Assembly (NCBI GenBank): GCA_045601825.1
Contig: JAZSAI010000033.1
Coordinates: 57,946-121,945 of the forward strand
DNA from: Paludibacteraceae bacterium
Lineage (GTDB): Bacteria; Bacteroidota; Bacteroidia; Bacteroidales; Paludibacteraceae
Length of the DNA: 64,000 nucleotides
Direction of reading: 5' to 3'
The notes below the pieces were generated by a model. The model had not been told where the DNA came from. It worked only from the letters and a program-made list of their open reading frames with translations, and did not search any database. Position numbers and translations under genes: made by a program. Below, one piece after another: positions 3,790 to 58,026 of the stretch (position 1 is its first letter; the number at the start of each line of letters is the position of its first letter).

Positions 3790-3842
3790 TCCCTATTATA
3801 TCATTAACAACTTTATTTATTAACTTTTAAATTTTATCAATT

Positions 3843-4969: not shown

Positions 4970-6037
4970 ATGAAAAAACTTCTGTTACTATTCGCTGTTG
5001 TGTCGCTCATAGCGTGTAACCCTCCCCAAGACACGTATCCTGATCCTGTAGTAGGCAGTTATGCTTATGGTGCTGATTGTTCTTGGATTAGTGAGCAAGA
5101 AGCAGATGGAGTGCTCTTCTATGATTCCCTTGGTATGGTCAAAAATGGCATGCATGTAATGCGTGATGCAGGTATGAATTCTGTACGCTTTCGTGTATGG
5201 GTAAACCATTCTACTGGGTGGAGCAACAAAGAGGATGTCATTCGTAATGCTCGTCGTGCGGACTCACTCAAACTGCGCGTAATGATAGATTTCCATTATT
5301 CCGACTTCTTCGCAGACCCTAGCCGTCAGAATATTCCTATTGCGTGGGCAGACTATGACCTTGAGCAAATGAAGCAAGCAGTAGCCAACCATACTACCGA
5401 TCTACTATCAGCACTCAAAGCAGAGGGCGTCAGCCCTGAATGGATTCAAGTGGGCAATGAGACGCGCAGTGGTATGCTCTGGCCAATGGGACGTTTCCAA
5501 GATGAGAACGGCGAGATAGAAGGTGGGTGGAGCCGTTATGCACAACTCACCACCGCTGGCTATGACGCATGTAAAGCAGTATTCCCAAATGCCCAAGTGA
5601 TTGTACATATTGATAATGCATATTTGGATAATAATTGGTTTTATCGCAATCTGTTGCAACATGGAGGTAAGTTTGATATGATAGGTCTTAGCCACTACCC
5701 AATGATGAAGCAATGGTCAGGCAAAGACTGGCAGGAGATGAATCAATTGGCGGCACAAAACATCGTTAATTTGCATAACGAGTTTCAATGCCCTGTGATG
5801 GTGGTGGAAATAGGTACCTATGCCAATGATTCTAACTCCGTGGATGTTATAACCGATTTCCGCCAACGTGTGGACACTATGGAGTATATGAAAGGAATCT
5901 TCTATTGGGAACCACAAGTCTATGGAGGTTGGCGCCCACAAGAATATATCCCATTAGGGTGGGGAGCATACCATATGGGAGCTTTCACATCAAACGGACA
6001 ACCTAATGAAGCCCTCAAAAACCTCTGGAAAAGATAA
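4970..6037 (+). CDS. GH53 arabinogalactan endo-beta-1,4-galactanase (lipoprotein)
   Basis: Lipoprotein signal ...VVSLIAC. GH53-type motifs are GADCSWISEQEADGVLFYD, NSVRFRVWVNH, IQVGNETRSGMLWP (acid/base Glu) and VMVVEIGT (nucleophile Glu). Confidence 0.88.
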   Translation: MKKLLLLFAVVSLIACNPPQDTYPDPVVGSYAYGADCSWISEQEADGVLFYDSLGMVKNGMHVMRDAGMNSVRFRVWVNHSTGWSNKEDVIRNARRADSLKLRVMIDFHYSDFFADPSRQNIPIAWADYDLEQMKQAVANHTTDLLSALKAEGVSPEWIQVGNETRSGMLWPMGRFQDENGEIEGGWSRYAQLTTAGYDACKAVFPNAQVIVHIDNAYLDNNWFYRNLLQHGGKFDMIGLSHYPMMKQWSGKDWQEMNQLAAQNIVNLHNEFQCPVMVVEIGTYANDSNSVDVITDFRQRVDTMEYMKGIFYWEPQVYGGWRPQEYIPLGWGAYHMGAFTSNGQPNEALKNLWKR

Positions 6038-17907: not shown

Positions 17908-20058
17908 ATGAATGGTTTTAGATTGAGATACACAATTGTCATTGTTTCTCTGTTTATGTATTGTTCTTTGAATGCTCAGACATTTAAGCAACTCAGTTTA
18001 ATGGTTCCTCACTATTATCCTGGTGAAGTCTATTTTCAGGATGGAACGCATGAATCATATGCTGAGATTGAACTACCTCGCTCTGGAAAAGATAAATTAT
18101 CCGTAAAGAAAAATAAAGAAGATAAAAAACGAACGGATATTGAAGCAATAGATATTGTTGGAATCAAAATATGGCATGCGAGATTCCCAGAAAAAGCCCA
18201 TGAATTATATTATGTGAAAGCGAAGAAGGCTTTTATGCAAAATGATAACCAATGGGGAACGCCAATTATGGGTAATAGTTGGGGAATTGTATACCAATGT
18301 GAGATTAATTATGAAATAGACAAGAAGACGGGCGAACTTCATGTGGTGAAATTTGCAGGAGGAACTGGTCCGAGCACACCAACTTTGTATTATTTGAAGC
18401 GTCATGACCAACAGATTGCAGATTTGATAGGTTCGGATACTGGTATCAGGCGTTCAAAGAACAAGTTCTCGGAACTGTTTCAGGATAACGCAAAGATAAG
18501 CGAGGATATTCGCTCGGGAAGACTGGGGTTAGGCGATATGCAGTATATCTTGGATGAGATGGCTTCTAATATGGGGGCTAATATACCTTCTAATAGAGTG
18601 GAGACGGTAACAACTCAGGATGCTGAACCTTTAGGACTGCGCCGTAGCGTATGTGTTATTAAGCCCGAATACACCGCAGAGGAGCGTGAGCTGATGGAGG
18701 ATTATTCTTTGCATATGGCTCGCGCTGGTATGAAAGAAGCATCGCGCCGACTAGCAGCATACAAAAGTGATGATACCTTCGGGTCTGGTGTGCTAATAGA
18801 GCAAGATGGCGAAAAATATATCCTTACGAATTTGCATGTGGTAGGTTATGCAAAGAGTACAACTGTTAGTTTTCAATTGCAAGGCCAAACTGCTAGTTAT
18901 TCTCAATGTCCTGTACAGGCAGTATGCCCAAATAGTGATTTGGCATTAATCAAACTGCCACAGGATTCTAATTTGTTGGCATTGTCAGTCTATCAGTCAG
19001 ATATATCGGAAGAAATGGCGGTTGTCGCTGCTGGTTTTCCAGGTTTAAATAATGCTCCATCGTGGCAAGTAACCCGTGGTTTTGTTTCGAATGCTCGTTT
19101 GAGTGTATTGGACGATATGCGTTCCACTCATATTATCCAACATACTGCCCCTATAGATCCTGGAAGTAGTGGTGGGCCGCTTTTGTATAAAAATTTGAAC
19201 GGCACATACGAGATAGTAGGTATCAATACGTGGAAATATTTTGGTCGTGAGGGAGTCGGACTTGCAATTGGCACAAACGATATCGTATCATTCTTAGACA
19301 ATCTTCCTGATGTAGAAGTATCGCATAATGGCGATATACATTCGCTTGATGAAGTAAAGGCAGAAGATTGGTTGTTCGTGTATAATCAATTACCCGAACA
19401 GGAAAAAGAACAATTGCATAAAATGGATTGCTATTTGCCTCTAGATCAGGTTTTGCAAACATTGACGCTAAGAGATAGTATCATACAGGAAGATGCCAAA
19501 CTTGCAAAACGATATGACAAGTCTGCTGCTCGTATTACAGATGATATTCAAAAAATGTCTTTCAGATTGTTATACGAAAATTACTTTGGCATCGAACAGC
19601 AAGTAATTGCCCAGATTGGAGCAGATTGGATAGGGTATATACCTGCTGGATTGCAGTTTTCTGTACCAATCCTGAATTGTATGACGCATGACGAAGCTAC
19701 TAATATAGGATTAGGTTATGCCAACTGTGCGGGAGTAACATTTGGACTCTATCTAGGAGGGCAACTTCCTATATCAGTAGGTAAGAGTGTAGTTGTACCT
19801 CGTATCATTCAAAGCGCATCAGGAGGCTTTGTTCAGGCTGCTGGAGTAATTGAATCTGAGATATTCGCAACTGATACTCGTGTAGGGCTAGATTGGCGTA
19901 TACCTTTTTCCTATTGTGATATGTTAATAGGTATGCATTATAACATGAGGTGGTTCTGGACTAAACATCTATTGAGCATACAACCTAATAAAGATACAGA
20001 TAACTATGACCAATATTTACAACATGGTATTGGCATGTCTATTGGTATTGGCTTCTAA
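17908..20058 (+). CDS. Secreted trypsin-like (S1/S1C-type) serine protease with unknown N-domain and barrel-like C-terminal domain
   Basis: Signal peptide ...MYCSLNAQ. Catalytic triad context is LTNLHVVGY (His), NSDLALIKL (Asp) and DPGSSGGPLL (Ser). The last ~230 aa have alternating hydrophobic strands and end ...GIGMSIGIGF. Confidence 0.75.
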   Translation: MNGFRLRYTIVIVSLFMYCSLNAQTFKQLSLMVPHYYPGEVYFQDGTHESYAEIELPRSGKDKLSVKKNKEDKKRTDIEAIDIVGIKIWHARFPEKAHELYYVKAKKAFMQNDNQWGTPIMGNSWGIVYQCEINYEIDKKTGELHVVKFAGGTGPSTPTLYYLKRHDQQIADLIGSDTGIRRSKNKFSELFQDNAKISEDIRSGRLGLGDMQYILDEMASNMGANIPSNRVETVTTQDAEPLGLRRSVCVIKPEYTAEERELMEDYSLHMARAGMKEASRRLAAYKSDDTFGSGVLIEQDGEKYILTNLHVVGYAKSTTVSFQLQGQTASYSQCPVQAVCPNSDLALIKLPQDSNLLALSVYQSDISEEMAVVAAGFPGLNNAPSWQVTRGFVSNARLSVLDDMRSTHIIQHTAPIDPGSSGGPLLYKNLNGTYEIVGINTWKYFGREGVGLAIGTNDIVSFLDNLPDVEVSHNGDIHSLDEVKAEDWLFVYNQLPEQEKEQLHKMDCYLPLDQVLQTLTLRDSIIQEDAKLAKRYDKSAARITDDIQKMSFRLLYENYFGIEQQVIAQIGADWIGYIPAGLQFSVPILNCMTHDEATNIGLGYANCAGVTFGLYLGGQLPISVGKSVVVPRIIQSASGGFVQAAGVIESEIFATDTRVGLDWRIPFSYCDMLIGMHYNMRWFWTKHLLSIQPNKDTDNYDQYLQHGIGMSIGIGF

Positions 20059-20134: not shown

Positions 20135-20165
20135 AAATGCACCTCTCGAGGTGCATTTATTTGTA
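20135..20165 (+). terminator. Intrinsic terminator after the protease gene
   Basis: AAATGCACCTC-tc-GAGGTGCATTT followed by ATTTGTATTT. Confidence 0.75.
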
Positions 20166-20173
20166 TTTCTAGC

Positions 20174-20207
20174 TTCTAAACCCTAGCCCGCAAGGCGTCC
20201 TCTAAAC
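20174..20207. repeat. Composite CTAAAC-hairpin-CTAAAC spacer element (diverged copy)
   Basis: TTCTAAAC-CCTAG-CC CGCAA GG-CGTCCTCTAAAC. Confidence 0.7.
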
Positions 20208-20300: not shown

Positions 20301-20789
20301 TTATGATAGTCGCTGGTACGCTATTCGGGGAGAATAGCTGCGGGGGTAGATGATACCGCACCAGGTGAATCCTTCGCGCTCGATGAGATGGATCATGCGG
20401 CTATTGTCTTGGTGGGTGTCAATGCGGATGTTGGCGCATTGGGCTGTGCACCATTCGAGGGCGGTGCGAAAGATGCCCTTGCAACTGCCATTCGAAGCAA
20501 TGCGGTGGATAGTGCCATAGTGCAAACTATCGTCCAACCACGCGCCGTCTTCTATCACATCGTAGGTAGGGTCATTACCGATGATAAAGACAAAAGTGCC
20601 GCATATATGTCCCTCGTGTTCAATGACATAGCTCACGCCTCGTTGGATGTCTTCTTCCAATTGCTCATGCTCAGGATAGCCGTCTCCCCATTGTGTAGGA
20701 TTGCCGTCTGTAGCCATCTGCCTTCTCGCGTGAGCGAAGATAGCAAGTAGCGCATCAATGTCGGCGTATGTAGTAGGGCAAATAAGCAT
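20301..20789 (-). CDS. GNAT-family N-acetyltransferase (paralog of 58035..58520)
   Basis: 162 aa, aligns end to end with the ORF at 58035..58520 (by eye about 70% identical; not computed). Its start overlaps the upstream stop as TAATG. Confidence 0.8.
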   Translation of the reverse strand: MLICPTTYADIDALLAIFAHARRQMATDGNPTQWGDGYPEHEQLEEDIQRGVSYVIEHEGHICGTFVFIIGNDPTYDVIEDGAWLDDSLHYGTIHRIASNGSCKGIFRTALEWCTAQCANIRIDTHQDNSRMIHLIEREGFTWCGIIYPRSYSPRIAYQRLS

Positions 20790-21481: not shown

Positions 21482-21991
21482 ATGCGTGATTTTCAAAGTT
21501 TGTGTCAAGAACGTCGTTCGTATCGTAAATATACAGATCAACCTGTAGAGCAGGAAAAATTGGACTACATCATGCGTTGTGCGCTGATGTCGCCTGCGGG
21601 CAAGCGTATGAACCCATGGCACTTCGTAGTGATTAAGAATGAGGCGATTCTTCGTCAGTTAGCAGGTTGCCGCACCTACGGTAGTGGTATGTTTGATACC
21701 GCTATGGCTGGTATCGTGGTGGCTGCGGATACCAGCGTGATTGATACATGGCAATGTGATGCTGCTATTGCTGCGCAAAATATCTGGCTCGCTGCTGCGG
21801 ACCAAGGACTGGGTGCTTGTTGGTGCCATGTGTATCAAAGAGAAGGCGCGGAGGACTTGGTGCGCAAGTTAACGGGGCTGCCAGAGAACTTCACGGTATT
21901 ATGCGTGATGTCGCTCGGCTACAAGAACGAAGAGCGCAAACCGTTTGATTTCGAGAAATTATCGTATGACAAAGTTACGCAAATAGATTAA
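21482..21991 (+). CDS. Nitroreductase-family protein
   Basis: 169 aa, RRSYRKYTDQPVE...SPAGKRMNPWHFVVI...AAIAAQNIWLAAADQGLGACW. This is the nitroreductase fold pattern. Confidence 0.85.
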   Translation: MRDFQSLCQERRSYRKYTDQPVEQEKLDYIMRCALMSPAGKRMNPWHFVVIKNEAILRQLAGCRTYGSGMFDTAMAGIVVAADTSVIDTWQCDAAIAAQNIWLAAADQGLGACWCHVYQREGAEDLVRKLTGLPENFTVLCVMSLGYKNEERKPFDFEKLSYDKVTQID

Positions 21992-22012
21992 AGTTTAGAG
22001 TTTAAAGGCAAG
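21992..22012. repeat. Short heptamer run AGTTTAG AGTTTAA AGGCAAG between the nitroreductase and pdxA genes
   Basis: Complement orientation of the CTAAAC word family. Confidence 0.6.
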
Positions 22013-29904: not shown

Positions 29905-31152
29905 ATGAGCAATAATCTCCTTTTTACCGAGCATAAACTCGGTCCTATTACTTTGCGCAACCGCGCCATCCGTAGTGCCGCTTTCGAGAACATGGCATAC
30001 GGCAACAAACCTAGTCAAGATCTCTATAATTATCATACTGCCGTAGCACGCGGTGGTGCAGCGATGACCACGGTGGCATACTGCTCTGTCACTCGTTCGG
30101 GTGTCTCTTTCGACGGTCAACTCTATATCCACGACGAAATCAAGGAAGACCTCAAAAAACTCACCGATGGCATTCATGCTGAGGGAGCAAAAGCAAGTAT
30201 TCAGCTTGGGCACTGCGGTAATATGACCCACTTCTATACTTGCAAATGTATGCCAGTTGGTGCTAGTACAGGTTTCAACCTCTATTCGCCAACTTTGCAT
30301 CGCGCACTGAAGAAAGAAGAAATCAAGGAGATTGTCAAGGCGTTTGGTCATGCGGTGGACTTCTGTCGCGAGTGCGGTTTCGACTGCGTAGAGATTCACG
30401 CGGGTCACGGTTATCTCATTTCGCAATTCCTCTCGCCATATACCAACCATCGTCGCGATGAGTACGGAGGTTCGCTTGAGAATCGTATGCGCTTCATGAA
30501 CGAAGTGATGGCAGAGGTGATGGAGCATGCAGGCGATGATATGGCTGTGGTAGTCAAGACCAATATGTACGATGGCTTCAAGTCTGGTCTCAAAGTAGAG
30601 GAGTGTATCCGTATCGCACAAGAGATTGAGAAACATGGTGTGCATGCGCTCGTACTCACCGCAGGCTTCGTGAGCAAAGCACCTTTCACCGTCATGGGTG
30701 GTGCTATGCCAATCAAAACTTTGGCTCACTACATGAACCCATGGTCATTCTGGTGGTTGCGTCTTGCGCTTCGCTTCGTGGGTCATTTGATGATTCCTAC
30801 TGTGCCTTTCAAAGAGCTCTTCTTCCTCGATACGGCTAAGCAATTCCGCAAAGCACTCAAGATGCCACTTATTTATGTCGGTGGTATCATGGGACGCGAG
30901 AACGCAGAGACAGCTCTGGCTGAGGGCTTTGATTTTGTGCAGATTGGACACGCTTTGGTGCGCGACACTGATTTCGTGAATAAGATGCGTGAGGAGCAAT
31001 ATCACTCTGAGTGCAAACGCTCTAACTATTGCGTAGCGCGTATGTACACCCTCGATATGAAGTGTCACGAGTGTGATAAGGATATCCCTAAATACCTCAA
31101 GAAAGAAGCACTCAAATACGAACAAATGTGGTATCCCTCCTCTAAACACTAA
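29905..31152 (+). CDS. Old-Yellow-Enzyme-family NADH:flavin oxidoreductase with C-terminal Cys cluster
   Basis: LGPITLRNRAIRSAAFE, IQLGHCGN, VEIHAGHGYLISQFLSPYTNHRRDEYGGSLENR (OYE signature). The tail is SECKRSNYCVARMYTLDMKCHEC. It starts 4 nt after the 5-alpha-reductase stop. Confidence 0.88.
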   Translation: MSNNLLFTEHKLGPITLRNRAIRSAAFENMAYGNKPSQDLYNYHTAVARGGAAMTTVAYCSVTRSGVSFDGQLYIHDEIKEDLKKLTDGIHAEGAKASIQLGHCGNMTHFYTCKCMPVGASTGFNLYSPTLHRALKKEEIKEIVKAFGHAVDFCRECGFDCVEIHAGHGYLISQFLSPYTNHRRDEYGGSLENRMRFMNEVMAEVMEHAGDDMAVVVKTNMYDGFKSGLKVEECIRIAQEIEKHGVHALVLTAGFVSKAPFTVMGGAMPIKTLAHYMNPWSFWWLRLALRFVGHLMIPTVPFKELFFLDTAKQFRKALKMPLIYVGGIMGRENAETALAEGFDFVQIGHALVRDTDFVNKMREEQYHSECKRSNYCVARMYTLDMKCHECDKDIPKYLKKEALKYEQMWYPSSKH

Positions 31153-31181
31153 ACACTAAACTCTAAACACTAAACTAGAAT
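31140..31181. repeat. Six phased heptamers CWCTAAA spanning the OYE stop to the SDR start
   Basis: ctctaaa cactaaa cactaaa ctctaaa cactaaa ctagaat. The last OYE codons (..SKH*) and the SDR ATG are inside the array. Confidence 0.9.
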
Positions 31182-38949: not shown

Positions 38950-40134
38950 ATGCTCATAACACTTATCGCAGGCGCACGCCCTAACTTCATGAAGATTGCG
39001 CCACTCATCAAAGCCATACAAGCCGCTGAGGCAGCAGGCAAAGATATCCACTATCGTCTAGTACACACTGGACAACACTACGACAAGAATATGTCCGACA
39101 CCTTCTTCGAGGAACTCGGCATACCAATGCCCGACGTGAACCTAGGATGTGGTGGCGGTACACAAGCCGAACAGACAGCCAACATCATGGTGGCTTTTGA
39201 ACGTGATCTAATGGCTAATCCTACCGACTTGGTACTAGTCGTAGGCGACGTGACGAGTACTATGGCGTGCTCCATTGTGGCGAAGAAACTCAATACCAAA
39301 GTATGCCACGTAGAGGCCGGCATACGCAGTTGGGACCTAACTATGCCTGAAGAAATCAATCGTATGGTTACTGACTCATTGGCGGATTATATGTTTACGA
39401 CGAGCGAAGTGGCCAATAAGAACTTAGTTCTTAGTGGCTGCAGTTTAGAAAATGTGCCTAATAGCCTTATTGCCTCATCACCTGATAGCCTTCCCGAAGA
39501 AGGTTACACTTTCGAACGCATCAAACAGCGCGTATGGTATGTAGGCAATGTAATGATTGACACATTATTGGCTAATCACAGTCGCTTCCGCAAACCTGAG
39601 GTATATGATGCGCTCGGACTAGAGGAAAAACAATACATTGTCATGACCATGCACCGACCAGCGAACGTGGACGAAGAGGCGCACCTCAAAGCCCTCATGG
39701 AGCAGATAATTACCAACGTGCACGGATTGCCTATCATCTTTCCAATACATCCTCGTACTGCCAAGATTTTTTACAACCTATGGGGGGATGAAGAGCGACT
39801 AAAACAACTATTTCCTAATCTGCATATTGTAGCTCCAATGGGCTATCTGGAGTTTAACTATCTAGTAGAGCGTGCCAAAGCCGTAGTCACTGACTCGGGC
39901 GGCATCACCGAAGAGACCACCGTGATGGGTGTACCATGTATCACCTTGCGCGACAACACAGAGCGCCCAGAGACTTGCACTGTGGGTACCAACGAACTGA
40001 TAGGTACTGACCCTACAGCCGTGAAACCTGCACTGGATTTATTATTTAGTGGACAATGGAAGAAAGGCGCCATCCCTCCACTCTGGGACGGACACACCGC
40101 TGAACGCATTGTGGAGATATTGCTTAGTGTTTAG
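38950..40134 (+). CDS. wecB: UDP-N-acetylglucosamine 2-epimerase (non-hydrolysing)
   Basis: ARPNFMKIAPL, HTGQHYD, VVGDVTSTMA, HVEAGIRS, DSGGITEETTVMGVPCITLRDNTERPE. Carries a ~26-aa extra segment encoded by an octamer array. Confidence 0.9.
   Translation: MLITLIAGARPNFMKIAPLIKAIQAAEAAGKDIHYRLVHTGQHYDKNMSDTFFEELGIPMPDVNLGCGGGTQAEQTANIMVAFERDLMANPTDLVLVVGDVTSTMACSIVAKKLNTKVCHVEAGIRSWDLTMPEEINRMVTDSLADYMFTTSEVANKNLVLSGCSLENVPNSLIASSPDSLPEEGYTFERIKQRVWYVGNVMIDTLLANHSRFRKPEVYDALGLEEKQYIVMTMHRPANVDEEAHLKALMEQIITNVHGLPIIFPIHPRTAKIFYNLWGDEERLKQLFPNLHIVAPMGYLEFNYLVERAKAVVTDSGGITEETTVMGVPCITLRDNTERPETCTVGTNELIGTDPTAVKPALDLLFSGQWKKGAIPPLWDGHTAERIVEILLSV
39451..39503. repeat. In-frame octamer array plus hairpin inside wecB
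   Basis: aatgtgcc taatagcc ttattgcc tcatcacc tgatagcc, then CCTTC-ccgaa-GAAGG. Encodes NVPNSLIASSPDSLPEEG. Confidence 0.85.
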
Positions 40135-40169
40135 GAACGGCGCATAGCGCCTACTGTTTAGAGTTTAAA
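40127..40169. repeat. Composite CTAAAC-hairpin-CTAAAC spacer element, inverted orientation
   Basis: GTGTTTAG-gaac-GGCGC ATA GCGCC-tac-TGTTTAGAGTTTAA. The wecB stop TAG is inside the first word. Confidence 0.85.
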
Positions 40170-40180
40170 GATAAAAATAT

Positions 40181-40729
40181 ATGATACTACCAATTTATTT
40201 ATATGGGCAACCAGTATTGCGTAAGCCCACTGAAGACATTACACCCGAGTCAGTTGACCTAAAGCAACTGATTGCAGATATGTGGGAGACACTAGCCGTA
40301 GCAGAAGGATGTGGACTTGCAGCTCCGCAGATAGGCAAAGCTATTCGTCTTTTCATCGTGGATGGTACTGAATTGGCAGAAGACTATCCTGAGTGTCAGG
40401 ATTTTAAGAAGGTCTTTATCAATCCAGAGATTATCGAGGAAAGCGAAGATGATGCCACTTTCTCTGAGGGCTGTCTTTCGTTGCCTGGTATATCCGAGAA
40501 TGTCATCCGTCCTGCTAGCATCACGATTCGCTACATGGATGAGAACTTCACCGAGCATACCGAAACCTATGATGGGTTTGCAGCACGTATTATCCAACAC
40601 GAGTATGATCACTTGGAGGGACATGTCTTCACCGACCGTATCTCGCCTATCCGCAAACAGTTTGTTCGTACCAAACTCACCAACATCGCCAAAGGCAAGG
40701 TAGCCGCTCGCTATCGCACCAAACGATGA
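40181..40729 (+). CDS. def: Peptide deformylase
   Basis: GCGLAAPQIG, EGCLSLPG and QHEYDHLEG motifs. Confidence 0.95.
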   Translation: MILPIYLYGQPVLRKPTEDITPESVDLKQLIADMWETLAVAEGCGLAAPQIGKAIRLFIVDGTELAEDYPECQDFKKVFINPEIIEESEDDATFSEGCLSLPGISENVIRPASITIRYMDENFTEHTETYDGFAARIIQHEYDHLEGHVFTDRISPIRKQFVRTKLTNIAKGKVAARYRTKR

Positions 40730-40740
40730 TGCATATGAAT

Positions 40741-40807
40741 GTTTAGTGAACGCACCTCAAGAGTCACAATTTAGTGTAAAGAGATCAGCACAAAGTGCCT
40801 TAAAAGG
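40741..40807. repeat. Heptamer-phased spacer with GTTTAGT/ATTTAGT words and a GCAC-AAA-GTGC hairpin (def to GT32)
   Basis: gtttagt gaacgca cctcaag agtcaca atttagt gtaaaga gatcagc acaaagt gccttaa aaggATG. Confidence 0.7.
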
Positions 40808-41527
40808 ATGATACCAAAGGTAATCCATTATTGTTGGTTCGGAAAAGGTGATATGCCCGAATTGGCGCAAAACTGCATCACCTCATGGCATGCTCATATG
40901 CCTAATTGGGAATTCCGGCTTTGGTCAGAAGATAATTTCGATATTACTTCTGCACATCCATACGTTCAAGAGGCATATGCTGCTCAGAAATATGCGTTTG
41001 TGAGCGATTATGTACGATTGTGGGCATTAGAACGAGAGGGAGGCATATATCTAGATGTCGATGTGGAAGTGCTACGCCCAATGGATAACTTGCTAGCAGA
41101 TATAGCCTTTATAGGGATGGAAGAGTCGCTAGAACTACTGCCTGGCACATGCGTGATGGGATGTGAAGCACATTGCCAATGGGTGAAAGATATGTTGGCA
41201 ACCTATAATGATGCACATTTCTTTAGGAATGGTTCGCTAGATATGACTACCAATGTAGTGCGACTAGGTAAACGAATGGTGGTAGGTGGATTGCAACAAT
41301 ATGTGCGTGAGGTACAATATTTGCCCCAATGGGGACTGCGCGTATATACCCACGACTACTTCTCACCCATCACTGCTGCTCGCATTATGCGCCAGTCTTA
41401 CCAAACATATGCCATACATCGCTTTGCAGGTAGTTGGGTGGAGAAAAAAGGTTTCAAATGGTATAATTGGTGGATATTGCGGCAAATGATGCAGGGATTG
41501 ATTGCTTGGAGGCGAATAATGTTATGA
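40808..41527 (+). CDS. GT32-like glycosyltransferase (DXD sugar-binding region, capsular/LPS type)
   Basis: IPKVIHYCWFG...SDYVRLWALEREGGIYLDVDVEV (DxD). Confidence 0.75.
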   Translation: MIPKVIHYCWFGKGDMPELAQNCITSWHAHMPNWEFRLWSEDNFDITSAHPYVQEAYAAQKYAFVSDYVRLWALEREGGIYLDVDVEVLRPMDNLLADIAFIGMEESLELLPGTCVMGCEAHCQWVKDMLATYNDAHFFRNGSLDMTTNVVRLGKRMVVGGLQQYVREVQYLPQWGLRVYTHDYFSPITAARIMRQSYQTYAIHRFAGSWVEKKGFKWYNWWILRQMMQGLIAWRRIML

Positions 41528-41555
41528 GGTGAGGAAGTATCACACAATAAGAAAG

Positions 41556-42122
41556 ATGAGTTTACTGACGATTATATTAATGGCAATTGGATTGGCGATG
41601 GATTGCTTCGCCGTATCGGTGTGCAAGGGATTGACATCGCCGCATGGCTATGTGCCTCGCTATATCAAACCCATGCTCATGGCATTGTTGTTTGGTGTGT
41701 TTCATGCGGGCATGCCGCTGATTGGCTATTTCGCTGGCAGTCTGTTTGCCTCGTTCTTCGAGCGCTTTGCGCCATGGATAGCACTACTATTGCTTGGTTT
41801 TATTGGTGGTAAGATGATTTACGATTCGTTGAAAGAGGACAATGATGAAACGCATTTAGCCGATTTCTCTTTCTTGGGTTTGTTGTCATTGGCATTTGCC
41901 ACATCAATGGATACTTTGGCAACAGGTGTGATTTTTATTCCTCATCCAGAAGTATTGTGGATAGCTGTGGGCATTATAGCAGCGACATGTTTCTTGTTTT
42001 CTATGACGGGTTTTGTGATTGGTCATTTAGTAGGCGCTCGCCTGAGAATGAACGTAACAATTCTCGGTGGAGTGATACTTATTCTTATTGGTGTGAAAAT
42101 TTTTCTTGAAGGAATCCTATAA
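41556..42122 (+). CDS. mntP: Manganese efflux pump MntP
   Basis: MSLLTIILMAIGLAMDCFAVS N-terminus and the second half ...ATSMDTLATGV. I preferred the ATG at 41556 to the GTG at 41529. Confidence 0.85.
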   Translation: MSLLTIILMAIGLAMDCFAVSVCKGLTSPHGYVPRYIKPMLMALLFGVFHAGMPLIGYFAGSLFASFFERFAPWIALLLLGFIGGKMIYDSLKEDNDETHLADFSFLGLLSLAFATSMDTLATGVIFIPHPEVLWIAVGIIAATCFLFSMTGFVIGHLVGARLRMNVTILGGVILILIGVKIFLEGIL

Positions 42123-42123
42123 T

Positions 42124-42164
42124 CACTAAACAGTAGCGCTTTAGCGCGTTCTCTAAACACAAAA
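42124..42164. repeat. Composite CTAAAC-hairpin-CTAAAC spacer element (mntP to DUF3109)
   Basis: CACTAAACAGTA-GCGC TTTA GCGC-GTTCTCTAAACACAAAA, then ATATG. Confidence 0.85.
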
Positions 42165-42166
42165 AT

Positions 42167-42748
42167 ATGTTTTTGATTCAGAATACATTAGTTAGTTTGG
42201 ATGTCTTGGAGAAGGACTTTTGTTGCGATTTGGATAAATGTCGCGGATGTTGCTGTATCGAAGGCGATGCTGGCGCACCACTGACCGATGAAGAAGAGGA
42301 GAAAATACGCGAGATACTACCTATACTGCTGCCCGATATGACCAAAGAGGCGCGTGCCGTGGTGGAAGCGCAAGGGGTATCGTATCTTGACCCTTCAGGC
42401 GAAAAAGTCACTTCAATTGTCAATGACAAAGATTGTGTCTTTGCCCGAACTGACCACAATGGGTGGTGCTACTGCCTGATAGAAAAAGCATACAACGCAG
42501 GCAAGATTGATTTCAAGAAACCTATCTCTTGTCATTTATATCCTATACGATTGAACAAAGTGGGCGATATGATTGGGGTGGAGTACCATCGTTGGGATAT
42601 TTGCCATTGCGCACGACAACTGGGCAAGAAACTGCATCTGCCTATCTATCAATTTCTGAAAGAGCCACTTATTCGACGTTTTGGACAAGAGTGGTATGAT
42701 GAGCTTTGCCTTGTTGCCTATGAATGGCACAAGCAGGTTAAAGGTTAG
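42167..42748 (+). CDS. DUF3109-family Cys-rich protein
   Basis: Cys cluster FCCDLDKCRGCCCIEGDAGAPLT plus later CYC/CH.C motifs typical of DUF3109. Confidence 0.7.
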   Translation: MFLIQNTLVSLDVLEKDFCCDLDKCRGCCCIEGDAGAPLTDEEEEKIREILPILLPDMTKEARAVVEAQGVSYLDPSGEKVTSIVNDKDCVFARTDHNGWCYCLIEKAYNAGKIDFKKPISCHLYPIRLNKVGDMIGVEYHRWDICHCARQLGKKLHLPIYQFLKEPLIRRFGQEWYDELCLVAYEWHKQVKG

Positions 42749-42758
42749 AAGCATGGAT

Positions 42759-44060
42759 ATGAAGGCTGAGATTATAACAATAGGCGATGAACTGCTGATT
42801 GGGCAAGTGGTGGATACCAACTCGGCTTGGATGGCAGAGCGACTCAATGAGGCGGGGATTGAACTCTACCAAATAACATCTGTGCACGATGACCGAGAAC
42901 ATATACTGAAGGCATTAGACGAAGCCTTCTCGCGTGCAGATATAGTGCTGACTACGGGAGGACTGGGTCCTACCAAAGATGATATTACCAAGCACGTTAT
43001 GTGTGAGTATTTTGGCACTACACTGGTGGAAGATTCGCGCGTGCGTGAGCATATACACGAGTTGTATAAGGAGCGACCTGATGTACTCAATCGCTTGACT
43101 GCTACCCAATGGCTCGTTCCCGAATCGGCTACCATACTGCCTAATCGGGTAGGTAGTGCACCGATTATGGTGTTTGAGAATGAGGTTAAAGGTGAGAGGT
43201 TAGAGGTTAGAGGCGAGGGACAAAATTCAAAATTCCTCATTGCCATGCCTGGTGTACCCCATGAGATGAAGATTGCGATGAGGGAGCAGGTACTTCCGTT
43301 TATTAGGTTAAAGGTGAGAGGTGAGAGGTTAGAGGTGAGCGGTGAGATTATTCATCGCACAATGATGTTGTATGGCATAGCGGAATCGACATTGGCACTA
43401 AAAATAGAGGAATGGGAGAATGCTCTGCCACAATCAATGCATTTGGCATACTTGCCTAAGGACGGTATTATTCGCCTGCGATTGAGCAGTTATGGCGAAG
43501 CAACAAAAGAAGAAATAGAGCAGCAATTAGCTAATCTAAAGCCACTGATAGCAGACTATCTGATAGCCACCGAAGATTTGCCTTTAGAAACGATATTGGG
43601 CAATCTACTCAAACAACGTCATCAGACTATTGCCACGGCAGAGAGTTGTACAGGTGGACGTTTGGCAGCCGCACTCAATGCGCAGTCGGGCGCATCGGCA
43701 TACTATATGGGTTCGGTAGTGGCATACGACAATACCATCAAGGAGCAAGTGCTGGGCGTGAAGCATGATACATTGGAAAAATACGGTGCCGTCAGCGAAC
43801 AAACTGTGCGTGAGATGGCTGAAGGTGTACGCGCACTAATGAACACGGATTATGCAATTGCCACATCAGGTATAGCTGGCCCTACTGGGGGAACACCAGA
43901 CAAGCCCGTAGGTACAGTATGGATAGCATGGGCTACGCCAAAGGGTACGACGGCGGAGTGTTATCACTTTGGTGTTGCGCGTGAACGCGAACAAATCACC
44001 CAGCGTGCAGTCACTGCTGCTTTGGTAGAACTAATCAAATCACTAAACACTAAACAGTAG
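42759..44060 (+). CDS. cinA: CinA-family competence/damage-inducible protein (MoCF-binding domain + PncC-like nicotinamide-nucleotide amidase domain)
   Basis: MKAEIITIGDELLIGQVVDTNS start (an ATG also occurs at 42753). C-terminal domain ATAESCTGG...IATSGIAGPTGG. Contains two in-frame heptamer arrays. Confidence 0.9.
   Translation: MKAEIITIGDELLIGQVVDTNSAWMAERLNEAGIELYQITSVHDDREHILKALDEAFSRADIVLTTGGLGPTKDDITKHVMCEYFGTTLVEDSRVREHIHELYKERPDVLNRLTATQWLVPESATILPNRVGSAPIMVFENEVKGERLEVRGEGQNSKFLIAMPGVPHEMKIAMREQVLPFIRLKVRGERLEVSGEIIHRTMMLYGIAESTLALKIEEWENALPQSMHLAYLPKDGIIRLRLSSYGEATKEEIEQQLANLKPLIADYLIATEDLPLETILGNLLKQRHQTIATAESCTGGRLAAALNAQSGASAYYMGSVVAYDNTIKEQVLGVKHDTLEKYGAVSEQTVREMAEGVRALMNTDYAIATSGIAGPTGGTPDKPVGTVWIAWATPKGTTAECYHFGVAREREQITQRAVTAALVELIKSLNTKQ
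43182..43237. repeat. In-frame heptamer array 1 inside cinA
   Basis: gaggtta aaggtga gaggtta gaggtta gaggcga gggacaa aattcaa aattcct. Encodes ..EVKGERLEVRGEGQNSKF.. Confidence 0.85.
43304..43345. repeat. In-frame heptamer array 2 inside cinA
   Basis: taggtta aaggtga gaggtga gaggtta gaggtga gcggtga, 42 nt, encoding RLKVRGERLEVSGE. Confidence 0.85.
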
Positions 44061-44087
44061 CCCGCAGGGCGTTCACTAAACACCAAA
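44041..44087. repeat. Composite CTAAAC-hairpin-CTAAAC spacer element (cinA to transporter)
   Basis: CACTAAA CACTAAA CAGTA-GCCC GCA GGGC-GTT CACTAAA CACCAAA, then TATG. The cinA C-terminus SLNTKQ* is encoded by the words. Confidence 0.9.
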
Positions 44088-47111: not shown

Positions 47112-47140
47112 GGTGTAGCAAAAATGCTACACCATTTTCT
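47112..47140 (+). terminator. Hairpin terminator after the NUDIX gene, overlapping the last ALDH codons on the other strand
   Basis: GGTGTAGCA-aaaa-TGCTACACC followed by ATTTTCTTT. Confidence 0.65.
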
Positions 47141-48536
47141 TTATAAGTTTGAATAGCTTATACGGCATGTAGCGGAAAGGCATGTCCACGAAGGTTGGGG
47201 TAGAGACTACCGAACGGCGGTGGGAGAAAGTTATGAAACTCTCCTTGCCATGATATGACCCCATACCCGAATTGCCTACACCGCCAAAGGGCACGTCGTG
47301 ATTCACTATGTGCATAATCACATCATTCACACAAGCACCGCCTGAAGATGTGTGGCGCAATACATAATTGCCATTGGTGCCGAAATAATACAATGCCAAT
47401 GGCTTCTCACGGTCGGTAACAAAAGTGATAACCTCATCTATCTCCTTGAATGTTAGCACGGGGAAGATTGGACCAAAAATCTCTTCTTGCATGACAGGGG
47501 CGTCTGGACTGACATCCGTCAAGATTGTTGGACTCATATAACGTTCGGCGCGGTCATAGTGACCGCCGTAATAGATGGACGCTTCGCTATGGGACGGCGT
47601 TCCGCCTATTGGACGCCCTGACGGGCTATTGGATATAGGCAAGTAACTAATCAAACGCTCCAATGCTTTGTCGCTGACAATACGCACGAAGTGTTTTGCC
47701 TTTTGTGGGTCTTTGGTTAGTAGGTGTTTCCACTCTTTGACAAGCAGTTTGAGGAACTGATCTTTTACGTCCTCATGAATCATCAGATAATCAGGTGCAA
47801 TACATGTCTGTCCTGCGTTGAGTGCTTTGCCCCATGCCACGCGTTTGGCTGCCACTTTAAGGTCGGCGGACTTGTCAATGATACATGGGCTCTTGCCACC
47901 CAACTCAAGCACGACAGGAGTGAGGTGCTTGGAAGCGGCTTCCATAACCATCTTTCCTAGCGAAGGGCTTCCTGTGAAGAATATTAAGTCCCATCGCTCA
48001 GCAAGCAGCATTTGATTAACCTGACGGTTACCCTCAACAATAGCGATATACTCCTCGGGGAAAGTGGCGCGAATCATCTCAGTAAGTACTGCCGATACAT
48101 GTGGTACGTATGGCGAGGGCTTGAGCATGGCTGTACAGCCTGCAGAAATGGCACCTACCAATGGATTGAGCAGCAATTGCACAGGGTAGTTCCATGGCGC
48201 AATGATGAGGGTATTGCCAAGCGGCTCTTTGATAACCTTGCTGGTAGCAGGCATAATCGCAATAGGCGAACATTTGCGTTCGGGGCGCGCCCAACGGCGC
48301 ATATGCTTGAGGTGATTGCGAATCTCACCATAGACAATGCTCAGTTCGGTGAGGTATGCCTCTTCGTAGGACTTGTGAAGGTCGGTCCAAAGGGCTTCAG
48401 CAAGTGGCTTCTCATATTGGTGCATGGCGTCGGATAACTTGCGTAGCATTTGCTTGCGGAAAGGTAGCGCAAGGGTAGCGCCAGAGCGGAAATACGCTTG
48501 TTGCTTGCTGCGAGTCGTTGAAATGTATTCTTTCAT
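47127..48536 (-). CDS. Aldehyde dehydrogenase (ALDH3-like class)
   Basis: FTGSPSLGK, LELGGKSP, CIAPDY (catalytic Cys), EEIFGPI. Has a ~17-aa extra loop encoded by a word/hairpin array. Confidence 0.9.
   Translation of the reverse strand: MKEYISTTRSKQQAYFRSGATLALPFRKQMLRKLSDAMHQYEKPLAEALWTDLHKSYEEAYLTELSIVYGEIRNHLKHMRRWARPERKCSPIAIMPATSKVIKEPLGNTLIIAPWNYPVQLLLNPLVGAISAGCTAMLKPSPYVPHVSAVLTEMIRATFPEEYIAIVEGNRQVNQMLLAERWDLIFFTGSPSLGKMVMEAASKHLTPVVLELGGKSPCIIDKSADLKVAAKRVAWGKALNAGQTCIAPDYLMIHEDVKDQFLKLLVKEWKHLLTKDPQKAKHFVRIVSDKALERLISYLPISNSPSGRPIGGTPSHSEASIYYGGHYDRAERYMSPTILTDVSPDAPVMQEEIFGPIFPVLTFKEIDEVITFVTDREKPLALYYFGTNGNYVLRHTSSGGACVNDVIMHIVNHDVPFGGVGNSGMGSYHGKESFITFSHRRSVVSTPTFVDMPFRYMPYKLFKLIKKMV
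47581..47633. repeat. In-frame word + mini-hairpin array inside the ALDH CDS (minus-strand gene)
   Basis: GCTTCGC, GGCG-TTC-CGCC and GCCC-TGAC-GGGC alternate with TATTGGA/TATGGGA words. Encodes PISNSPSGRPIGGTPSHSEA. Confidence 0.9.
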
Positions 48537-55545: not shown

Positions 55546-55686
55546 GTTTAGTGGACGCTCGCGTTCGGCAATTGAAGCGCACAGAACTCGCTTGGCGAGT
55601 TGAAAGCGCTCAATGCCTCCGCTCTCCCCACTCGCTCACGAGGCTCGTGGGGCCCCCGATTGATGGCTATTGTTTAGTGTTTAGAG
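55546..55686. repeat. Expanded GTTTAG-flanked element with a GC-rich nested-hairpin core
   Basis: GTTTAGTG at 55546 and GTTTAGTGTTTAGAG at 55672 flank AGCGC-[AACTCGC-TTG-GCGAGTT]-GCGCT (55576-55610) and CACGA-GGC-TCGTG (55637-55649). Confidence 0.8.
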
Positions 55687-55687
55687 A

Positions 55688-55720
55688 AACAATGCACAAG
55701 CATGGGGCTTGTGCATTGTT
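55688..55720. terminator. Strong bidirectional hairpin between the convergent Na/Pi transporter and C45 hydrolase genes
   Basis: AACAATGCACAAGC-atggg-GCTTGTGCATTGTT (14-bp stem). Confidence 0.8.
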
Positions 55721-55749
55721 ATTGTATGAGATATTTCACTCTCTCTGTA

Positions 55750-56804: not shown

Positions 56805-57971
56805 TTAGTAGCATGCTTTGAGGATAGCCAGAATATCTTCGGCGTTGAGTTGTTTGTAGCCGCCGCCGAGGGCAGTGGAGTTGGCAATGAGCGGTAGCAT
56901 TTCTTCGGTTGCACCCACTTCGCGGAGGGTAGCAGGAATGCCTAATTCAGCGATAAATGCTTCGAGGCGATTGATACCCTCTAATGCAATCGCTTCGTCG
57001 CCCTGACCGTGGTCTTCTACGCCCCAGATATGCTTGGCATAGCGCACAAAACGGTGCAAGCCGTCGCGGTAGATATAGCGATAGTAGGCAGGCGAGATGA
57101 TAGCCAGACCAATGCCATGTGCGCAGTCGGTATAGGCACCCAATTGGTGCTCAATCATGTGCACTTCCCAGTCTTGCGTCTTGCTCAGTCCGAGTATTTT
57201 GTTGAGTCCCATAGTGGCGCACCACATGATATTGCTGCGTGCCTCGTAATCTTCTTGATTGACAATAGCTTTGCGCGATGCAGAGATAAGCGAGAGCATC
57301 AGTCCTTCGATGAGGTAGTCGCTGGTGCAGTCGTCATCGCCAGAGAAATACTGTTCCATTAGGTGGGAGAAGATGTCGAAGATACCGCTAATCATCTGAT
57401 ATTTAGGCACGGAGTAGGTGTATTCGGGGTTGAGGATAGAGAAACGTGGAGTGACCAATGCCAATGGATAGACACGACCAATCTTCAGATTCTCTGCCTC
57501 GTTGGTGATGACTGAGCCAGAGTTCATTTCGCTGCCAGTGCCTGCCATCGTGAGGATACTACCTACAGGTATGACGCGGTTGGTCACGGGTTCTTGATTG
57601 ACGTAGTAGCGTTGCCATACATCGCCTTCGGCGTAGGCAGCACAAGCGATACCTTTGGCGCAGTCGATGACCGAACCGCCACCCACAGCGAGGATAAGGT
57701 CGATATTGTGCTCACGCACGAGACGTGCACCTTCGAGCAACTGGGTATAACGAGGATTGGCATTGATGCCTGCTAGTTCCACGACATGCTTGCCTTCGGC
57801 TTGCAGGATATTGATGACTTGGTCGTAGAGACCTATTTTCTTGATAGCAGCTTTGCCGTAAACGAGTAGGATGTTATTGCCGTACTCACGGAGTTCGCCA
57901 GCAAGCTTGTTGATGGCTTTCTTGCCAAAGTGAATCCGCGTAGGATTCTGATAGGTGAAGTCGTATAACAT
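56805..57971 (-). CDS. Iron-containing (group III) alcohol dehydrogenase, butanol-dehydrogenase-like
   Basis: LAVGGGSVIDCAKG, plus the metal-site histidines of the Fe-ADH family (...HMIEHQLGAYTDCAHG...). Confidence 0.88.
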   Translation of the reverse strand: MLYDFTYQNPTRIHFGKKAINKLAGELREYGNNILLVYGKAAIKKIGLYDQVINILQAEGKHVVELAGINANPRYTQLLEGARLVREHNIDLILAVGGGSVIDCAKGIACAAYAEGDVWQRYYVNQEPVTNRVIPVGSILTMAGTGSEMNSGSVITNEAENLKIGRVYPLALVTPRFSILNPEYTYSVPKYQMISGIFDIFSHLMEQYFSGDDDCTSDYLIEGLMLSLISASRKAIVNQEDYEARSNIMWCATMGLNKILGLSKTQDWEVHMIEHQLGAYTDCAHGIGLAIISPAYYRYIYRDGLHRFVRYAKHIWGVEDHGQGDEAIALEGINRLEAFIAELGIPATLREVGATEEMLPLIANSTALGGGYKQLNAEDILAILKACY

Positions 57972-58026
57972 GTTTTGTGTTTAGTTTAAAGTTTATAGTT
58001 TTAAGGGAGGGAGGCGGTTGTGCCGC
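57972..58026. repeat. Five phased heptamers (minus strand CTNTAAA-like) plus a GCGG-TTGTG-CCGC hairpin, between the GNAT stop and the ADH start
   Basis: Plus strand reads gttttgt gtttagt ttaaagt ttatagt tttaagg. The ADH ATG abuts the array. Confidence 0.8.

Follow-up and report, generated by a model that had tools for sequence, protein, structure and literature searches.

The window analysed here comprises 64,000 nucleotides of contig JAZSAI010000033.1 of a Paludibacteraceae bacterium (assembly GCA_045601825.1, positions 57,946 to 121,945 of the forward strand), and all coordinates given without a locus label refer to it. It harbors, among others, the genes wecB, def, mntP, cinA, a gene for a DUF3109 protein and a transporter gene, which correspond to the Pfam families Epimerase_2/wecB, Pep_deformylase, Mntp, CinA, DUF3109/Rv0495c and Asp-Al_Ex, respectively, as assigned in the near-identical locus L001 and in our own Pfam scan. 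At junctions between these genes, but also inside a gene and between convergent genes, the window contains a short repeat consisting of a small G+C hairpin of variable sequence between two constant tags. The family resembles the repetitive extragenic palindromic (REP) elements, with a 3' CGTYC tag and a context of tandem heptanucleotides (CTAAACN) as features of its own. The best reading is selfish repeat DNA whose behaviour is akin to that of the REPs of Escherichia coli, whereas a dedicated RNA signal at gene junctions is not supported. About eight units are present in the 64 kb, and the copies and the related heptamer arrays are the following:

42126-42158 (stretch 42124-42164), plus strand: unit at the mntP-DUF3109 junction, with CTAAAC (42126-42131), A, GTAG (42133-42136), hairpin GCGC-TTTA-GCGC (42136-42147), CGTTC (42147-42151), T and CTAAAC (42153-42158)
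44043-44081 (stretch 44041-44087), plus strand: unit at the cinA-transporter junction, with two CTAAACA heptamers (44043-44056), GTAG (44057-44060), hairpin GCCC-GCA-GGGC (44060-44070), CGTTC (44070-44074), A and CTAAAC (44076-44081)
40129-40168 (stretch 40127-40169), minus strand: inverted unit at the wecB-def junction, read on the plus strand as GTTTAG (40129-40134), GAACG, hairpin GGCGC-ATA-GCGCC (40139-40151), CTAC, T, GTTTAG (40156-40161), A and GTTTAA (40163-40168)
20176-20207 (stretch 20174-20207), plus strand: diverged unit, CTAAAC-CC-TAG, hairpin GCC-CGCAA-GGC, CGTCC-T-CTAAAC
55546-55686, minus strand: large cassette, with the tags of the small units enclosing a structured core of about 110 nt
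47577-47628, minus strand: three head-to-tail units inside the aldehyde dehydrogenase (ALDH) gene (47127-48536, minus strand)
31142-31175, plus strand: array of five CTAAACN heptamers without a hairpin, filling a gene junction
40741-40774, minus strand: truncated or degenerate inverted unit at the def-glycosyltransferase junction, TGTTTAGTGAACG followed by unrelated sequence
43173-43345, plus strand: two in-frame heptamer arrays inside cinA (about 43173-43215 and 43303-43345)
57967-58003, minus strand: short degenerate heptamer array, TATAAAC TTTAAAC TAAACAC, directly 5' of the ATG of a minus-strand gene
21981-22012, minus strand: short heptamer array at a gene junction, AAAGTTTAGAGTTTAAAG on the plus strand

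All five copies named in the initial annotation (the first five above) are present with the stems described there, and the triple unit in the ALDH gene as well as the truncated unit at 40741-40774 are additional to it. It is also correct that cinA and wecB end inside the element. The cinA open reading frame (ORF; 42681-44060) uses the TAG of the unit's GTAG as stop codon, and the transporter starts with the ATG at 44089; the wecB ORF (38950-40134) stops with the TAG at 40132-40134 inside a GTTTAG, and the ATG of def is at 40181. At the third junction the TAA of mntP is located at 42120-42122 and the ATG of the DUF3109 gene at 42167. The ORF at 29905-31152 likewise terminates within the heptamer array at 31142-31175, and the next ATG (31180) lies 5 nt downstream of this array. 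The diverged unit is situated between a peptidase gene (17908-20058, plus strand) and a convergent GNAT gene (20301-20789, minus strand).

The hexamer CTAAAC by itself is not enriched in the window (33 occurrences, 27.8 expected), and the architecture CTAAACNNTAG-N6-36-CGTYCNCTAAAC is found three times in the window versus never in 100 shuffles. A covariance model built from copies outside the window and run with filters off recovers the four small copies with E values from 3e-7 to 7e-4: the unit at 42126 scores 44.3 bits (E = 2.7e-7), the one at 44043 41.3 bits, the one at 40129 43.4 bits on the minus strand, and the diverged one at 20176 27.2 bits (E = 7e-4). The truncated unit reaches a weak 11.3 bits. 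Since each window hairpin on its own is weak (-2.3 to -6 kcal/mol, z from -0.8 to -2.4), the case rests on the comparison between copies and not on thermodynamics.

Tagged hairpins and the heptamer layer

Among the copies read in 848 kb, the unit proper consists of NN-TAG (RTAG, mostly GTAG), a G+C hairpin and CGT(T/C)C, and TAG and CGTYC contribute the G and the C, respectively, of the closing pair of the stem. Including this closing G-C pair the stems have 4-6 bp, which are almost purely G/C, and the loops have 3-5 nt, mostly 3. TAG is invariant. In at least 90% of the 60 units flanked by heptamers the base before it is G, and in arrays of the CCAATA type it is A. The GTAG tag lies 0-2 nt 5' of the stem-loop, its final G being the first base of the stem, and CGTC(C) adjoins the stem in roughly every second unit. 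The smallest ones are GCGAAGC, GCGCAGC, GCGTAGC and GCGGAGC, and GCGNAGC is known as an extraordinarily stable DNA mini-hairpin motif (PMC13037366). Units occur singly or in head-to-tail arrays with CGTYC-NN-TAG joints, and they are flanked by CTAAAC(A/T) heptamers or by other short repeats, e.g., CCAATA and CCCATA.

The CTAAAC flanks had initially been regarded as conserved arms of one composite element. Their repeated presence holds true, but they are no fixed arms: they belong to a 7-nt microsatellite (CTAAACN) whose copy number varies, e.g., from five heptamers without a hairpin at 31142-31175 to as many as nine in the related locus L053, and the conserved part is RTAG-hairpin-CGT(T/C)C. 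At least two tandem heptamers close to a start codon are found at 31142-31175 and at 44043-44056. The units are in phase with the heptamers, as deletion of A-GTAG...CGTTC leaves a perfect CTAAACA repeat, and the modal unit of 21 nt (an 11-nt core plus tags and linker) equals three heptamers. Among the tandem repeats detected in 1.48 Mb with Tandem Repeats Finder, period 7 accounts for 197 arrays, and periods 5, 6 and 8 for 1, 15 and 68, respectively. Rather than one composite element with conserved flanks, the repeats are best seen as a heptamer microsatellite that forms a first layer, and a second layer of tagged hairpin cassettes that are inserted into the first. Higher-order tandem modules occur as well: L120 contains at 5215-5375 five modules of 29 nt, each with two heptamers and one unit, whose hairpins are progressively different, and L052 contains at 4312-4432 three identical 43-nt modules.

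Distribution, stem covariation and the large core

The initial annotation expected a dispersed family with further copies, and this is the case. A scan for the flank pattern, with one genome per species, yielded at least 115 stretches, and 114 of the 115 matches listed belong to metagenome-assembled genomes (MAGs) labelled Paludibacteraceae, Bacteroidales, one Bacteroidaceae or Candidatus Aphodosoma, the remaining one being a chance match in Vibrio. At least 44 species-level MAG assemblies, sampled from ruminant, horse and other guts, carry the pattern, and nearly all of them are labelled Paludibacteraceae. Hundreds of units are spread over about 1.5 Mb of related DNA, mostly in intergenic positions; 57 of 219 units overlap ORFs as called, although part of these ORFs are artefacts of the ORF caller. 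Stops and starts inside repeats call for caution with gene callers. In loci picked by a neighbouring protein, the covariance model matches in the closest relatives only, and the viral contigs searched contain no match to the unit. The family is thus confined to one clade of uncultured gut Bacteroidales. The window has no Rfam match at the gathering score, and we found no prior description of the family in Paludibacteraceae in the literature, which is not proof of absence.

The variation of the stems is compensatory, as had been claimed from the few copies in the window. We aligned 60 distinct 34-nt units with a 5-bp helix, which were selected by their flanks alone to avoid circularity. In this alignment 99% of the stem cells pair versus 69% after shuffling, double-sided changes are present in 77 cells versus 28, and the covariation score is 0.644 versus 0.147, values that were reached by none of 500 shuffles. 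When the partner was slid by 1-3 columns as a control, 20-63% of the cells paired. When units of any length are included, 93 of 110 distinct flank-defined ones form four or more perfect Watson-Crick pairs. The dominant stems are GCGC, CGCC, CGGC, GCAC, CCGC and GTGC, a pattern reminiscent of REP sub-families, and the stems are perfect in 176 of 188 flanked units. Single mismatches on the GTAG strand are G:T in nine cases and A:C in one (p = 0.02; n = 10). Compensatory stem variation is therefore confirmed as real. Covariation in a palindrome, however, cannot separate an RNA hairpin from a hairpin of single-stranded DNA, and the family is a concrete case in which textbook covariation alone is no proof of RNA function.

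The copy at 55546-55686 had been taken for an expanded hairpin. It indeed shares the tags and heptamers of the small units, reading on the minus strand CTAAACA-CTAAACA-ATAG, 109 nt, CGTCC-A-CTAAAC, but what lies between the tags is a distinct structured repeat of about 110 nt and not a swollen hairpin. It is composed of a 5' hairpin and a long covarying stem that bears an apical hairpin, each followed by an invariant sequence (AGAGCGGAG and CGAACGCGA, respectively), and it contains a GA/GAA internal loop. In seven copies of the core, 17 of the 29 predicted pairs show compensatory changes. The copies found are:

window, 55552-55672, minus strand
L064, 4908-5044
L107, 4975-5115 and 2793-2930
L090, 3671-3811
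L012, 461-600
L034, 670-812
L155, 4185-4366
L205, 6330-6450

Copies of the large core are not always tagged. Long inserts between tags occur twice in all data, and both are the large core, the second one being a 141-nt core within the same tags in L155. This locus moreover contains at 4020-4760 a mosaic of about 700 nt made of units, heptamers and two large cores. Rfam searches around the core at E <= 10 gave only noise (E > 2), and the viral contigs contain one match to it, directly upstream of the start codon of a gene. For the large core, either a so far undescribed RNA motif or a master form of the cassettes is conceivable.

Orientation and turnover at gene junctions and inside genes

Between co-directional genes, 55 non-redundant units are oriented with and 61 against transcription (p = 0.64); 18 further units are located between convergent and eight between divergent genes. 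Relative to each other the units are polar, since neighbouring units not more than 100 nt apart are arranged head-to-tail in 40 cases and inverted in one (p = 4e-11). Within an array, adjacent units mostly differ in their stem. Where a unit is co-oriented with the genes of its junction, the upstream stop codon is either the TAG of the unit (four cases) or a heptamer TAA located 5, 12, 19, 26 or 33 nt upstream, and the next ATG follows 12-20 nt past CGTYC in 28 of 55 cases; the repeats therefore supply the stop codon and make up nearly the whole spacer. The hairpin is followed by CGTTCNCTAAAC and lacks the U-tract that an intrinsic terminator would require. A permissive scan flagged only the inverted copy at 40139-40151 as terminator-like, on the plus strand, because GTTTAG repeats follow it. 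Terminator-like hairpins with T-runs adjoin two copies, one at 20136-20160 (aaatgcacctctcgaggtgcattta ttt), upstream of the diverged unit at 20176, and one at 55690-55725 (aaacaatgcacaagc...gcttgtgcattgtt). With these ordinary terminator-like hairpins beside them, the copies at 20176 and 55546 lie outside operon junctions.

Comparison of orthologous junctions reveals that whole units are gained and lost. At the mntP-DUF3109 junction of 80 metagenomic relatives, the state of the majority as well as of the most distant relatives is an overlap of the two genes (...GAAGGNNATGTT); such overlapping genes without the element are present, e.g., in L001, L117, L119, L124 and L126. Among relatives with 93-96% identical DUF3109, four have the overlap and one (L131) has heptamers only, and the window, L118, L120 and L122 each contain a different hairpin at this junction. 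L001 shares with the window an identical wecB-def copy and also the cinA-transporter copy; no unit is present at its mntP-DUF3109 junction, and an additional, inverted one lies between def and mntP. The cinA-transporter hairpin is the same in the window, L001, L054 and L120 while the flanks vary; at this junction the element is absent in L119, and L052, L017 and L130 contain other units. The def junction shows turnover like that at these two junctions, and the copy number of the heptamer arrays differs between close relatives (five versus nine in L120 and L053). The family provides a cheap strain-typing marker for these MAGs.

More distant lineages contain other stop-containing 7-8-nt repeats in the same spacers, namely GGTTAGA, GGATTAGA, AGTTGAA, AATTAAG and CGTTAAAN. 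Heptamer microsatellites build short spacers between genes that ancestrally overlapped or abutted, and the family illustrates how operon spacers can arise de novo from overlapping genes. In the loci L117-L196, which cover the mntP-DUF3109, ruvX/wecB-def and cinA-transporter junctions, lineage-specific 7-8-nt repeats, also including GTGTAAG and AAATGGT, fill ancestrally overlapping junctions in a wide set of rumen and gut Bacteroidales, and most of them include a stop codon per repeat.

Where the reading frame tolerates them, cassettes and heptamers have entered coding sequence as well. The three units inside the ALDH gene, whose product belongs to the Pfam family Aldedh, read on the minus strand TAGCCCGTCAGGGCGTCC aa TAGGCGGAACGCCGTCC ca TAGCGAAGCGTCC and are translated in frame as ...SPSGRPIGGTPSHSEAS... 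They form an insertion of 12-13 residues compared with PDB 6k0z and the ortholog L112 (12 versus 6k0z). At the same codon, a GCGAAGC unit alone is found in L112, three heptamers in L025 and no unit in L054. In cinA, the in-frame arrays of AGGTTAG/AGGTGAG units encode the peptides KGERLEVRGEG and RGERLEVSGE; orthologs have direct units at the first site (43173-43215; L130, L127, L017) and two inverted units at the second (43303-43345; L120). Short repeats thus remodel housekeeping proteins (ALDH, cinA) within a genus.

Comparison with known repeats and possible origin of the units

A (G)TAG located 0-2 nt 5' of a G+C-rich stem-loop is the signature of REPs, and CGTC is the tag of a second REP superfamily (PMC3733652; PMC6006769). 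REPs of the GTAG superfamily (Di Nocera et al., 2013, PMC3733652) and the systems of REPs and their RAYT transposases (PMC2817692, PMC6006769) share several features with the units: they are short, abundant and mostly extragenic stem-loops with (G)TAG directly 5' of the stem, they form sub-families with alternative complementary stem residues and G:T pairs, they occur in clusters and occasionally inside genes, and they expand in a lineage-specific manner. However, their stems comprise 6-13 bp (PMC3733652), or 7-20 bp in a REP finder (PMC6006769), compared with 4-6 bp here, and standard REP finders would miss the family because they require stems of at least 7 bp. Further differences are the second, 3' tag CGT(T/C)C, the very high stem diversity per tag family, the head-to-tail arrangement (40:1) instead of the inverted dimers known as BIME or REPIN, and the position of units in phase inside heptamer microsatellites. 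A cognate RAYT was not found in about 1.5 Mb of loci. CGTC REPs are known from alpha-Proteobacteria and a few Bacteroidetes and have no known transposase (PMC3733652). With these the units have in common the CGTC(C) at the stem in about half of the cases and the lack of an evident dedicated transposase. CGTC REPs have stems of 8-9 bp starting with A-T pairs, loops of 4-5 nt, CCA tails and head-to-head dimers, whereas the units have G/C stems of 4-6 bp, loops of mostly 3 nt, no CCA tail and head-to-tail arrays, and their CGTC is located 3' of the hairpin, on the strand that has GTAG at the 5' side.

Regarding the heptamer layer, TAACTGA repeats are known upstream of start codons in Beggiatoaceae, Cyanobacteria and a few Bacteroidetes, among which Paludibacter propionicigenes is listed (MacGregor, 2015, PMC4679880). 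Those are likewise tandem, stop-containing 7-nt units, mostly in short spacers within a few nucleotides of the start codon and occasionally arrayed in ORFs, and their phylogenetic distribution, which includes Bacteroidetes, is sporadic. In contrast, the heptamer studied here is lineage-variable (CTAAACN, with GGTTAGA, AGTTGAA or AATTAAG in relatives) and occurs in both orientations, and tagged hairpin cassettes are not described in TAACTGA arrays. The palindromic elements of Rickettsia, cited in PMC3733652 as members of CGTC-1 and CGTC-4, are also in-frame palindromic inserts in housekeeping genes, where they add short peptides; they are about 100-150 bp long, in contrast to units of 17-23 nt or heptamers, and belong to another phylum. 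Non-autonomous elements derived from IS200/IS605 (PMC6006769) have ends set by small subterminal hairpins and transpose as single strands, guided by the hairpins, in a strand-specific manner. They lack inverted repeats, and if they insert beside a short specific sequence, oriented head-to-tail arrangements would be expected. Unlike these, the units are far smaller, and no TnpA was found in the loci. A further parallel may be the mobile GC clusters of yeast mitochondria, which are short G+C-rich palindromes in A+T-rich spacers, reported with TAG/AG borders and polymorphic between strains. These are organellar, are longer (about 30-40 bp) and lack heptamer arrays.

Several other identities were rejected. 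Integron attC sites do not fit, as the flanks are direct repeats (CTAAAC ... CTAAAC) and not the inverted repeats formed by an inverse core RYYYAAC and a core GTTRRRY; furthermore, GTTCTCT does not fit GTTRRRY, and the genes concerned are housekeeping genes in conserved synteny. A CRISPR-like arrangement was dismissed on anatomy, since the "spacers" are palindromic, and an intrinsic terminator because no U-tract follows the hairpin. An extended pairing of the heptamer AAC with the GTT of the tag shows no covariation, as the T/C of the tag varies while the A is invariant, and the stems are not inverted copies of the flanks, as footprints of hairpin opening (P nucleotides) would be.

The units are a lineage-specific family of miniature, tag-delimited hairpin cassettes, and we consider it about an even chance (probability roughly 0.5) that these are selfish DNA of the REP type, which is probably read by an HUH/Y1-like enzyme. 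The non-palindromic tags would be read as sequence and the stem as a shape on one DNA strand, the GTAG strand, so that the stems could drift via compensatory changes and yet stay perfect hairpins. By analogy with RayT-type Y1 HUH transposases, which need GTAG 5' of the hairpin for the recognition of REPs (PMC3733652, PMC6006769), the reader may be a trans-acting enzyme of the RayT or IS200-IS605-like type or a functional equivalent. Secondary effects on mRNA are likely, as with E. coli REPs, but a hairpin at the stop codon and heptamer stops in three frames would then be consequences of the element and not the reason for it. The occurrence of tag-bounded cores of very different size is consistent with this, as it corresponds to the logic of end-defined non-autonomous elements, and so are the strand asymmetry of G:T versus A:C mismatches, hairpins of the GCGNAGC type, the polar growth of the arrays, an orientation that is indifferent to transcription, the restriction to one clade, the constant tags around covarying stems and the turnover of units at orthologous sites. 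If selfish cassettes are indeed the correct reading, REP-like tagged palindromes reach uncultured gut Bacteroidales, and they do so in an unusual form, with a tag on either side, hypervariable stems and arrays that grow in a polar, head-to-tail manner within heptamer microsatellites.

Several results weigh against such REP-type cassettes. A search of the about 1.5 Mb of loci with E. coli RayT (tblastn) did not reveal a transposase linked to the units, and the sole Y1_Tnp trace there is the truncated gene in L079, which is flanked by a different palindrome. ORFs with inverted units on both sides hold no nuclease or transposase; those found are def, cinA, a histidine kinase, a SUF-type protein and one hypothetical ORF only. 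An ORF-bearing version between the tags was not found either, only the two large non-coding cores. Compared with described REPs, stems of 4-6 bp are shorter, the stem diversity within one family is far above that of known REP-RAYT pairs, and inverted dimers, which are typical of REPs, hardly occur. Known HUH chemistry does not account for the strict in-phase association with heptamers, three of which equal the commonest unit of 21 nt, and the G:T asymmetry is based on ten cases only. The L079 gene itself (3560-4180) is a truncated RayT-like Y1 gene (relatives of PF01797, YIHANPVKAG motif, C-terminal HTH) just downstream of wecB, and the flanking copies of a 29-nt palindrome, AACACAGAGGGACAGTCCCCGTGTGTT, are unrelated to the units. 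Its homologues in other Bacteroidales were dropped as candidate mobilisers, as they have no units nearby.

A spread without any transposase is a serious rival, albeit rather unlikely. In this scenario, replication slippage and ectopic gene conversion between heptamer arrays, whose identical sequence at many loci suffices for this, would copy the units as passengers by homology-directed repair, and the stems would be kept by intrastrand template-switch correction of quasipalindromes, with no reader protein. The exact phase of units and heptamers with a modal unit of three heptamers, the varying array copy number among close relatives (L120 and L053), the tandem duplication of the 29-nt (L120) and 43-nt (L052) modules and the dominance of period-7 arrays argue for it, as does the fruitless transposase search. 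It also agrees with heptanucleotide repeats being the commonest long simple repeats in prokaryotes, ascribed to polymerase slippage (Mrazek, 2007, as cited in PMC4679880). However, many units have no CTAAAC heptamers and are joined in tandem via CGTCC-NN-TAG only, including those in the ALDH gene, and for these the homology is too short for RecA-type conversion. Moreover, the tags are invariant in at least 44 species while the stems vary, which suggests sequence-specific recognition, and the arrays grow with adjacent units that usually differ in their stem, so that simple duplication cannot explain this growth.

Unlikely, too, is that the RTAG and CGTYC tags mark an undescribed insertion system. 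Its enzyme would add cores of any size, from 5 nt to about 140 nt, head-to-tail and in the register of the heptamers, and would thereby produce intercistronic spacers and peptide inserts in housekeeping proteins throughout the clade, with the core of about 110 nt as a possible functional RNA or DNA partner or master copy.

The initial annotation implied a junction signal for processing, termination or coupling, and this is not supported. In its general form, such a reading takes the unit as a selected intercistronic signal in polycistronic mRNA. It might stabilise the 3' end of the upstream cistron or shield it from RNases, mark a site of processing, terminate transcription weakly, or keep termination apart from initiation without a Shine-Dalgarno sequence on an unstructured A/C-rich leader. 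The very short spacers that the units occupy, the upstream stop codons provided by TAG or a heptamer TAA in co-oriented junctions, the regular distance to the next ATG, the tolerance of G:T wobbles and the cinA-transporter hairpin that is constant in four lineages while its flanks vary are in agreement with such a signal. Heptamer repeats just 5' of start codons have been proposed elsewhere as sites of translational regulators, including in some Bacteroidetes (PMC4679880), and 3' untranslated region effects of E. coli REPs are reported (bioRxiv 10.64898/2026.03.23.713779). Nevertheless, the units have no preferred orientation with respect to transcription (55 versus 61) despite their asymmetric flanks, they are present inside ORFs in both orientations (ALDH, cinA), between convergent genes (18 units) and after terminators (20176), they turn over rapidly at orthologous junctions whose ancestral state had no spacer, and their weak hairpins have no U-tract and match no Rfam family. 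Random orientation, junction turnover, in-gene copies and the missing U-tract make the RNA signal the weakest rival, and we regard it as improbable. Chance resemblance or an assembly artefact, to which the unenriched hexamer and single hairpins no more stable than shuffles could point, is effectively refuted by the full pattern in the window, the strong covariation statistics, the hundreds of copies in MAGs of many independent studies and hosts, and the orthologous copies common to independent assemblies.

The window differs from L001 also by a glycosyltransferase gene (40808-41527, Gly_transf_sug), which is located between def and mntP (40729-41556) and is absent from the corresponding region of L001 (10551-10639), where the def-mntP junction contains an intact inverted unit and a long heptamer array. 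The left border of this gene cuts an inverted unit at the foot of the hairpin (TGTTTAGTGAACG, then unrelated sequence), which suggests that hairpin units may serve as recombination or breakpoint sites.

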